This document shows positions 21,946 to 23,031 of a DNA stretch of 64,000 nucleotides, piece by piece (position 1 is the first letter of the stretch; each line of letters opens with the position of its first letter). The translations under genes and the position numbers were made by a program. The notes below the pieces were generated by a model. It was not told the origin of the DNA, did not search any database, and saw only the letters and a list, made by a program, of their open reading frames with translations. This DNA comes from Escherichia coli (lineage in GTDB: Bacteria > Pseudomonadota > Gammaproteobacteria > Enterobacterales > Enterobacteriaceae), in the NCBI RefSeq assembly GCF_001677475.2, contig NZ_CP012498.1; one strand, 5' to 3'.

Positions 21946-23031
21946 ATGGATAAAAACTTTATATTAAATCTTTCTATAAACACTACTAATCCTAAAAATA
22001 ATAAAGAGTTTCTTTGGCTTAGTTATAGCATGAATAATTTGAGTTCGGTAAAATATGAGAGGCCATACTGGATGACTCTGGAAAAAAGATGCCTGTCTTT
22101 ATTCATGGAAAACGGATATGACCTTCAGACAGGTGTATGGTTTTGTCTTATTTCTACCCATCTATATGGCTGGGAAGGTCTGGCTATTTCTTCATGGAAA
22201 TTTGCTGATTCTTTTGTTAAACAAAAAAAATGTTGGCCTCCTGTCACTGACGCGCATATACGAACTAAAATTCTTTTATGGTATATTAAAAATATTGTTC
22301 CTATGATACAAAGTTTGCCTAATGATGAACAGACTTATTCTTCTCTAACGTTACTGGAAGATTCGTTAATATTATTGGCAGAACTTGAGTATAATCTTCT
22401 TTCAGGTGAAAGAACTATTATTTCTGAAATGCTACATGAAGTAAAAAGACAAAAAAATGGTAACTATGAAAAGAGTGATGATTATTTCATGGAGGAGAGC
22501 AGGCATGAGGGTTTAAATGAGACTTCAGGACATGTGTGTTATAATTCAACACAGAGATACAAAAAAACATGCATATATTATAACATAATTGCTTTTATAT
22601 CTGGAGCTTTAGTAACGATTTTTATAAATTATTTAGGGAAGCCGCAAACAGCTCTAAAGATCAGGAGTATTATGCCTGATAGCTTTCTTTCTGAAATAGT
22701 AATGAATTATTCAGGGTGTTCTGAATACACTCCTGATTCAACAGATTACTGGACTAAACTAAGTAAAAAAATTGATGGCTTTGCAGAAGAATTAAATACA
22801 ATTGAAAATAATGGGGGGTATATTACTATATCTAGACTGAAAACAATAGCTTATGATATGAAAAAAAATTTCCTTGAGTATGATACTCCTGTGAATGTAA
22901 GAATGTCAAATTTATATAATAATGTGTACATTGATAAAAAGGATATAAAAAGAGAACTTGAAATAATAGAATACAATGTTAATAAATTTAATTGTCAGAT
23001 TAGTGAATTAAAACTGAAAAATGAAAGTTGA
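21946..23031 (+). CDS. Hypothetical membrane protein with a TssA-like (ImpA_N-like) N-terminal region; possible TagA-like T6SS accessory protein
   Basis: 361 aa; N-terminal pattern (LEKRCLSLFMENGYDLQTGVWFCLISTHLYGWEGLA) parallels the tssA ORF at 8280; a hydrophobic helix (IYYNIIAFISGALVTIFINYL) lies mid-protein. Confidence 0.4.
   Translation: MDKNFILNLSINTTNPKNNKEFLWLSYSMNNLSSVKYERPYWMTLEKRCLSLFMENGYDLQTGVWFCLISTHLYGWEGLAISSWKFADSFVKQKKCWPPVTDAHIRTKILLWYIKNIVPMIQSLPNDEQTYSSLTLLEDSLILLAELEYNLLSGERTIISEMLHEVKRQKNGNYEKSDDYFMEESRHEGLNETSGHVCYNSTQRYKKTCIYYNIIAFISGALVTIFINYLGKPQTALKIRSIMPDSFLSEIVMNYSGCSEYTPDSTDYWTKLSKKIDGFAEELNTIENNGGYITISRLKTIAYDMKKNFLEYDTPVNVRMSNLYNNVYIDKKDIKRELEIIEYNVNKFNCQISELKLKNES

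Follow-up and report, generated by a model that had tools for sequence, protein, structure and literature searches.

TagA proteins are defined in the literature by an ImpA_N domain, a transmembrane region and a VasL domain; they localize to the membrane, and they stop and hold the sheath of T6SSs (type VI secretion systems) (PMC6745524). In Vibrio cholerae, TagA is an accessory, non-essential component that is found at the membrane and at the sheath's distal end, limits sheath over-extension and makes contacts mediated by ImpA_N (PMC6745524, PMC7545191). Santin et al. (2018), as related in PMC6745524 and PMC6730261, describe TagA of the Sci-1 system of EAEC 042 as a sheath anchor of the 'stop and hold' kind. 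The ImpA_N region itself has been implicated in sheath docking (PMC11106082).

TagA has been discussed together with the long class of TssA proteins. The TssA clades are distinguished by EPxxP or WEP motifs (PMC6232143, PMC6745524), and one proposal is that TssA interacts with TagA through its C-terminus (PMC6745524). A 2024 paper calls TagA 'the TssA_L-associated accessory protein' (PMC11106082) and it is likewise described as TssA_L-associated in PMC7896307, a pairing which both papers state as an association and not as a formal definition. In a survey of 100 clusters (Bernal et al.) the combination of TagA with a short TssA was reported to be absent; the dataset of that survey includes no E. 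coli T6SS-3-type cluster. Our full-text searches of freely readable papers found no literature linking Sci-2/T6SS-3 or i4b clusters with TagA or VasL.

Genomic setting

The window, that is the whole analysed stretch of 64,000 nucleotides of E. coli contig NZ_CP012498.1, is part of a large plasmid with a T6SS-3 (aai/Sci-2)-type cluster. The cluster occupies the window's first 20 kb, has a low GC content (about 31-41%) and carries the gene described here at its end (Table 1). Its order is tssB (cut by the window edge), tssC, hcp, tssE, tssF, tssG, vgrG, DUF6931, PAAR, tssA, tssJ, tssK, an IS110 remnant, tssL, tssM and tssH, and the same order of core genes is found in EAEC 042 and O104:H4. The i4b label used below is based on the literature naming of Sci-2/T6SS-3, on the 84-85% identity of TssA and TssH to the O104:H4 aai orthologues and on the EAEC 042 gene order. 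A roughly 30-kDa TagB/TagJ-like gene is absent from the T6SS cluster of the window. Among 5,426 complete E. coli genomes, the same stretch was present at 98-99% identity on 18 large plasmids and on 0 chromosomes, with top plasmid matches 99.1-99.4% identical to the window. IS pseudogenes are abundant across the island.

The open reading frame is intact, beginning with ATG and encoding 361 aa plus stop, and its start (MDKxFIL...) is conserved across homologues. On near-identical plasmids PGAP names it 'type VI secretion system ImpA family N-terminal domain-containing protein'; the identification of the gene is thus not new, as RefSeq already labels it by its domains.

Table 1. Coordinates of the TagA-type gene, its parts and its surroundings (numbered from the first nucleotide of the window).
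Feature	Position	Strand	Basis
T6SS-3 (aai/Sci-2)-type core cluster	17..19877	+	ORF list; PGAP on L001 (98.8% identical); EAEC 042 / O104:H4 order
TssA of the same cluster, short, TssA1-clade (358 aa), presumed partner	8280..9356	+	TIGR03363; Pfam; PDB matches; EPTSP
tssH (clpV), directly 5' of the TagA-type gene in IS-free relatives	17346..19877	+	ORF; PGAP tssH; junctions in L008, L009, L012, L013
Spacer between tssH and the TagA-type gene, 2,068 bp	19878..21945		tblastn; NCBIfam; PGAP pseudogenes on L001; blastn
IS21 IstA-like fragment, weak	20248-20388		tblastn E=5e-4
Degraded IS3-family transposase	20507-21345		tblastn E=1e-63
Second IS3 fragment	21313-21516		NCBIfam E=5e-9
TagA-type (ImpA_N - membrane helix - VasL) accessory gene, 361 aa	21946..23031	+	ORF; Pfam; hhalign; PGAP name
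ImpA_N region, residues 15-112, within helical Nt1-like domain 1-170	21988..22281	+	Pfam
Low-complexity disordered linker, residues 176-202	22471..22551	+	AlphaFold pLDDT <50; alignment variability
Single hydrophobic membrane-anchor helix, residues 209-231	22570..22638	+	Kyte-Doolittle; AlphaFold; family-wide segment
Partial VasL domain, residues 264-353, T-I-S-x-L-K-T motif	22735..23004	+	Pfam PF12486; invariant columns; BLASTP

Domain architecture and family membership

A first-pass annotation of this DNA had pointed to an N-terminal likeness between the protein and the TssA of the same cluster, and this likeness was recovered by BLASTP (31% identity over 62 aa, E=1e-6), with the proposed GWEGLA-type motif aligned: 'HLYGWEGLA' (residues 72-80) lies opposite 'HLYALEGMS' of TssA. 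The expected ImpA_N domain (PF06812) was likewise matched (E=1.1e-5). An additional match, which had not been predicted, is that to VasL (PF12486; E=5.2e-8), covering only positions 56-144 of the 147 of the model. Invariant family-wide are W42, G57 and G78 in ImpA_N and T294, S296 and K299 in VasL. G78, which belongs to the HLYGWEGLA motif, shows no variation in 41 homologues, and the VasL invariants sit in the T-I-S-E-L-K-T motif of the protein.

The transmembrane-like helix that had been placed at about residues 210-230 corresponds to the sole strongly hydrophobic stretch of the protein. The top 19-residue Kyte-Doolittle window spans residues 209-227 (score 2.04) and windows of at least 1.4 reach residue 233, from which the helix bounds given in Table 1 are taken as approximate. 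A hydrophobic segment occupies the equivalent position in 39/39 family members (25 of the window type and 14 of the EAEC type), its position being kept and its sequence not. The AlphaFold model was built on a 41-sequence alignment and has a mean pLDDT of 86.9. Its N-domain (1-170) and C-domain (233-360) are both helical, and between them lie a disordered stretch (176-202) and a long helix (205-230). The linker varies in both length and sequence across the family alignment. The C-terminal tail, also variable across the family, is 13-23 aa shorter than in the closest homologues.

Structural and family databases contributed little beyond Pfam. The single protein sequence had no match in the PDB at E up to 10, and the sole PDB match of the family profile was the ImpA_N part of EAEC TssA (6rju, E=4e-4); no solved VasL-domain structure was there for comparison. 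NCBIfam is without a TagA/VasL model, and the only match of the protein there was to a TssA model, well below threshold (TIGR03362, 18.2 bits against a cutoff of 230.1, E=1e-3), with no match to TIGR03363. Neither an EPxxP nor a WEP motif is present in the open reading frame.

The closest characterized protein that could be compared by sequence is EAEC 042 Sci-1 TagA (EC042_4550), which we recovered as an intact 455-aa open reading frame (L007, 34071-35438) with Pfam matches to ImpA_N and VasL. BLASTP aligned the two proteins collinearly in both domains (E=3e-8, and E=2e-5 for the C-terminus). A profile-profile comparison by hhalign of 25 window-type sequences with 14 EAEC-type sequences, including EAEC 042 TagA, gave a probability of 99.94% and E=3e-37 over 360 columns, so that the resemblance is not due to chance. 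The protein thus unites ImpA_N, a hydrophobic region after ImpA_N, a partial VasL, full-length homology to a characterized TagA and a T6SS neighbourhood, all of them features of TagA/TsmA, and this bears out the membrane-anchored, TagA-like identity suggested in the first-pass annotation. The association of TagA/TsmA with a long TssA (TssA_L/TssA2, VasJ, WEP) is not found in the window cluster. The gene is a new, experimentally uncharacterized member of the known TagA/VasL family.

Operon position and the IS-filled spacer

E. coli and E. marmotae have homologues with 64-73% identity, and remoter ones are found in Yersinia enterocolitica, Shigella dysenteriae and Buttiauxella. A homologue was found in 96-100 of the 5,426 complete E. 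coli genomes, at 50 chromosomal and 51 plasmid places. The tssA type of the cluster is present in 102 genomes (at least 80% coverage), and its number and its split between chromosomes and plasmids are similar to those of the TagA-type gene when compared as totals, not genome by genome.

The Escherichia loci include chromosomes, the aai/Sci-2 islands of O104:H4 and EAEC 042 and an E. marmotae plasmid. In every one of them the gene is located downstream of tssH and separated from it by a spacer of 0.7-6.5 kb with variable IS or intron debris. In IS-free relatives (L008, L009, L012, L013), among them Yersinia, Rahnella and Tatumella, the start of the gene overlaps the tssH stop (ATGA/GTGA) or follows 2 nt after it. 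A species-level scan with one genome per species yielded 33 loci, 16 of them with a window-type protein, from Rahnella, Enterobacter soli, Tatumella, Ewingella, Lelliottia, Mangrovibacter, Yersinia massiliensis, Cedecea neteri and Erwinia phyllosphaerae; the gene directly follows tssH in 15/16 and tssM in 1/16, the latter only where tssH is absent. The co-occurrence with related T6SS clusters, which had been put forward as a check on the family assignment, extends over E. coli, E. marmotae, Yersinia, Rahnella, Tatumella, Ewingella, Mangrovibacter, Cedecea, Erwinia and others, always after tssH or tssM. The ancestral place of the gene is the last in a tssA-tssJ-tssK-tssL-tssM-tssH operon, translationally coupled to tssH.

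Since the gene abuts or overlaps the tssH stop in IS-free relatives, the IS3/IS21 debris of the window has split a once-contiguous operon, and the proposal that the original cluster extended further than clpV is correct. The accompanying estimate of about 2 kb of IS21/IS3 debris was correct in part. The length of the spacer and the IS3 fragments were recovered, but recognizable IS sequence makes up only about 1.3 kb of its 2.07 kb. As judged by blastn against related loci, native sequence continues to about 20055-20114 (~180-240 bp beyond tssH) and starts again at about 21891 (~20-55 bp before the gene). Least well supported in this reading is the IS21 assignment: an NCBIfam search with the 50-aa open reading frame in the IS21-like piece returned no match, and on the 98.8%-identical plasmid L001 PGAP annotates the piece as 'Mu transposase domain'. 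IS traffic can in this way hide operon membership, and cluster-calling tools that end at tssH will miss the gene.

Selection and expression

The dN/dS of the TagA-type gene against three Escherichia orthologues is 0.18-0.30, next to 0.15-0.31 for tssA, tssH, tssK, tssL and tssM, and its divergence is ~2x that of tssH. The gene is under purifying selection and is maintained.

A scan of positions 19800-23400 gave 18 promoter-like sites where 11.8 +/- 4.0 were expected, none of them above chance. On the + strand, the interval from tssH to the gene contained no terminator-like site. In EAEC 042 the aai genes downstream of clpV, together with the intervening transposase pseudogenes, are AggR-dependent with log2FC of -1.2 to -2.2 (PMC6392122), which argues for read-through transcription. 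By analogy with its EAEC 042 orthologue, the gene on the window plasmid is probably still expressed by read-through. According to PMC6730261, which cites Dudley 2006 for it, aaiA-P are enough for secretion of Hcp (AaiC) in HB101, a K-12 host. This sufficiency is consistent with a non-essential, optimizing accessory role of the TagA-type gene.

Pairing with a short TssA

The under-appreciated part of the finding is the kind of TssA with which the gene occurs. The TssA of the cluster matches TIGR03363 with 227.6 bits (cutoff 160.85) and in Pfam ImpA_N only, VasJ being not significant; against the PDB it matches Burkholderia cenocepacia TssA in both Nt1 (E=8e-16) and the ring-forming C-terminal domain (E=1.6e-12). 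It carries the EPxxP signature of its clade as EPTSP at residue 315, and no WEP. At the species level, all 14 window-type loci with a visible tssA encode a short TssA (354-377 aa, EPSSP), whereas the 12 corresponding EAEC-type loci all encode a long-type protein (11 full-length with 528-543 aa, 1 cut by the locus edge), with the WEP motif in 11/12. Short TssAs were also found in L006, L008, L009, L010, L012 and L013, and every examined cluster of the window-type subfamily has a TssA1-clade TssA of this kind (349-392 aa, EPxxP).

Accordingly, a putative TagA-type anchor is encoded alongside a short TssA in the T6SS-3 (aai/Sci-2)-type clusters of E. coli and in related clusters from at least 10 genera. 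We tentatively posit, as a possibility that we would not yet favour, that a second TagA branch (357-466 aa, mostly ~370; encoded after tssH, or tssM) is a dedicated partner of short TssA1-clade caps in T6SS-3/i4b-like clusters of Enterobacterales. Should the window-type protein clamp the sheath, the scheme of 'long TssA + TagA = anchored, long-lived sheaths; short TssA + TagB/TagJ = fire-at-once' would not be general, and TagA function would be independent of the TssA Nt2/VasJ C-terminus, operating through the contact between ImpA_N and the sheath instead. The pairing is a natural test of the TagA target, be it the TssA C-terminus or the sheath end reached through ImpA_N, and EAEC 042 combines the two TagA branches with the two TssA classes in a single tractable cell. 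Taken alone, the gene is a routine accessory component; its value is contextual, stemming from the conserved pairing of short TssA and TagA.

Proposed function and alternatives

We consider it fairly probable that the gene encodes a TagA-family accessory component (TsmA, a 'class B' ImpA_N protein) of the plasmid's T6SS-3-type system, acting as sheath anchor. Going by the family, the hydrophobic helix would anchor the protein in the inner membrane and leave the ImpA_N domain on the cytoplasmic side, where the protein may capture the distal end of the extending sheath, or the TssA cap sitting there. Capture would halt polymerization and keep the sheath in its extended state until it fires, which is what has been reported for TagA of EAEC and V. 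cholerae. The role in distal sheath clamping, and with it the capping of sheath extension suggested in the first-pass annotation, is transferred from these homologues. As ImpA_N/Nt1 is the sheath-docking part of TssA proteins, a clamp acting via ImpA_N could work together with a short TssA.

The topology was judged from charge counts. Lysine and arginine number on average 3.1 on the N-flank of the helix against 1.5 on the C-flank in the window type, and 3.4 against 0.9 in the EAEC type; the E. coli members have 3 on each flank. The family-wide enrichment on the N-flank predicts an N-in/C-out arrangement and thus a periplasmic VasL, which may alternatively mean that the protein couples sheath arrest to the envelope. 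EAEC TagA is reportedly cytosolic and membrane-associated.

Several points speak against the sheath clamp: only about 15% identity underlies the transfer of function, the TssA that serves as partner is short and without the Nt2/VasJ C-terminal domain, VasL is partial, the flank charges favour C-out in the wider family but are even in the E. coli proteins, and the gene is uncoupled from tssH and has no promoter-like site above chance. With a short TssA1-type cap as its partner, the protein might instead belong to the same family but do a different job. It could, for instance, modulate or inhibit the start of assembly at the baseplate or membrane complex, or face the envelope via a periplasmic VasL. 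In V. cholerae, TagA binds many components of the T6SS, TssL/M and baseplate proteins among them, and its over-production blocks assembly (PMC7545191, PMC6745524); the missing VasJ C-terminal domain of the cluster's TssA and the C-out topology predicted from the charged N-flank point the same way. We regard such a role as rather unlikely, given that the full-length homology to EAEC TagA takes in the sheath-docking ImpA_N region, that the ImpA_N/Nt1 fold is common to short and long TssAs, both of which are located at sheath ends (PMC6232143, PMC7896307), and that nothing speaks positively for another role.

The gene might also be a stranded relic, cut off from the tssH operon by IS elements and no longer expressed or used, yet not degraded so far. 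The 2,068-bp spacer with its three IS fragments, the promoter-like sites that do not exceed chance, the IS pseudogenes throughout the island and the shortened C-terminus would all agree with this. Such a fate is nevertheless improbable, as the open reading frame is intact with a conserved start and all invariant residues, is at least 99% identical in 18 complete E. coli plasmids, and shows the low dN/dS given above against lineages that likewise have IS-filled spacers. The equally separated EAEC 042 orthologue and the IS pseudogenes before it are co-regulated with the cluster, no terminator-like + strand site intervenes, and the C-terminal tail is variable across the family anyway. Least credible is a second, divergent core TssA paralogue in place of a TagA. 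An ImpA_N domain, the weak TIGR03362 match and a length of 361 against 358 aa are what it has in its favour, while the score falls far below the TIGR03362 cutoff with TIGR03363 unmatched, the C-terminal EPxxP or WEP motif is lacking, and a bona fide TssA is already encoded in the cluster. The domain content (ImpA_N, helix and VasL, the last two missing from TssAs) effectively refutes it.

Comparison with described TagA and TssA proteins

Like EAEC 042 Sci-1 TagA, the window protein is arranged in the order ImpA_N, linker, single hydrophobic helix and VasL. Both share a T-[IV]-S-E-L-K motif and a P-D-N motif after the helix, and both are encoded with T6SS clusters. Their identity is only about 15-24%, and the window protein is 94 aa shorter; compared with the EAEC type, the window type is without some 80 of the residues that come after the helix, among them those for the first third of the VasL model, which is matched from position 2 to 146 in EAEC TagA (E=1e-37) and from 56 to 144 in the window protein. 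The genes also differ in position and partner. While the window type directly follows tssH and occurs with a short TssA1-clade TssA, EAEC 042 Sci-1 TagA is encoded about 9 kb downstream of tssA, beyond tssE, and occurs with a 532-aa TssA2 with a WEP/VasJ C-terminal domain.

The window protein and V. cholerae TagA/VasL (VCA0121; TsmA, a class B ImpA_N protein), compared by description only, both have a hydrophobic membrane-targeting region after their ImpA_N domain. The V. cholerae protein differs in pairing with a long TssA (VCA0119) and in its C-terminus, which has been set apart as a separate form, 'TagAV' (PMC7896307). From the short TssAs of the TssA1 clade (B. cenocepacia 6hs5/6hs6, P. 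aeruginosa TssA1), the window protein is distinguished by a membrane helix and VasL in place of the EPxxP ring-forming domain.

The orthologue in the aai island of EAEC 042 and O104:H4 is WP_000359994.1 (384 aa; 65% identity for the O104:H4 copy), annotated as 'hypothetical protein', which by gene order only would be aaiT or aaiU (EC042_4582 or 4583). Its architecture is the same, it occupies the same place downstream of clpV2 behind IS debris, and it is co-regulated with the T6SS by AggR. It differs from the window gene in its chromosomal location (pheU island), in a spacer of 4.2-6.5 kb with other IS and intron content, and in its longer C-terminal tail. The comparison thereby assigns a probable function to one 'hypothetical' aai gene downstream of clpV in EAEC 042 and O104:H4.

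Putative effector genes downstream of the TagA-type gene

The TagA-type gene is immediately followed by an ORF of the AvrPphF/HopF family, whose product also weakly matches the EspJ ADP-ribosyltransferase. At the equivalent position, four related loci carry AvrPphF-ORF-2, IcsB_M or Tox-PLDMTX genes, and we posit that these downstream genes may represent anti-eukaryotic cargo of this T6SS clade. In the window, a T6SS is found adjoining a member of a family resembling T3SS effectors. The next ORF yielded no matches in Pfam and NCBIfam searches, and its product is kept on related plasmids as WP_000870678.1. 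It may serve the adjoining effector-like gene as a partner, chaperone or immunity protein.

Features of the window and of related loci
Feature	Location	Strand	Details
IS110-family transposase remnant	window 11804-12819		between tssK and tssL; from ORFs and the PGAP annotation of L001 (plasmid 98.8% identical to the window)
AvrPphF/HopF-family ORF	window 23296-23937	+	213 aa; Pfam AvrPphF-ORF-2, E=3.5e-8; PGAP 'AvrPphF family type III effector'
ORF following the AvrPphF-like gene	window 24009-24617	+	202 aa
AvrPphF-ORF-2 gene	L005 15245-15841		equivalent position
IcsB_M gene	L008 11427-11996		equivalent position
IcsB_M gene	L010 16203-16772		equivalent position
Tox-PLDMTX gene	L012 16079-16636		equivalent position
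tssM to TagA-type gene, tssH absent	L010 6244-11074		E. coli/S. dysenteriae variant cluster
tssM to TagA-type gene, tssH absent	L024 6379-11356		Yersinia massiliensis cluster
Sci-1 TagA, experimentally characterised	L007 34071-35438 (E. coli 042 NC_017626.1 4884070-4885437)		intact ORF, 455 aa, ImpA_N + VasL

Variation within the T6SS clusters

On the near-identical plasmid, the IS110 remnant is labeled 'IS110 family transposase, frameshifted; internal stop', and the core genes on either side of it are all full length compared with their EAEC 042 orthologues. Directly after the tssH stop, a segment of about 180-240 bp (window 19878-20114) is approximately 70% conserved in four related loci (L002-L005) and not conserved in the O104:H4 aai island (L006); neither a coding nor an IS origin is obvious for it. 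The two clusters in which no tssH separates tssM from the TagA-type gene are T6SS clusters of the same clade without a cluster-encoded ClpV.

TagA annotation and topology

The Sci-1 TagA ORF of E. coli 042 appears in current RefSeq as three 'pseudo' fragments, including one named POTRA, and this splitting is probably an annotation artefact. Alignments of the window-type (A2, 25 sequences) and EAEC-type (A3, 14 sequences) TagA subfamilies, over the stretch matching residues 194-242 of the window protein, show that both are richer in K/R on the N-terminal side of the hydrophobic helix, with means of 3.1 versus 1.5 on the other flank in A2 and 3.4 versus 0.9 in A3. Because of this enrichment, the positive-inside rule predicts a periplasmic location of the VasL domain in both subfamilies. 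EAEC TagA has been described as cytosolic and associated with the membrane, and the two views, one predicted from flanking charges and one held for the EAEC protein, are in tension.
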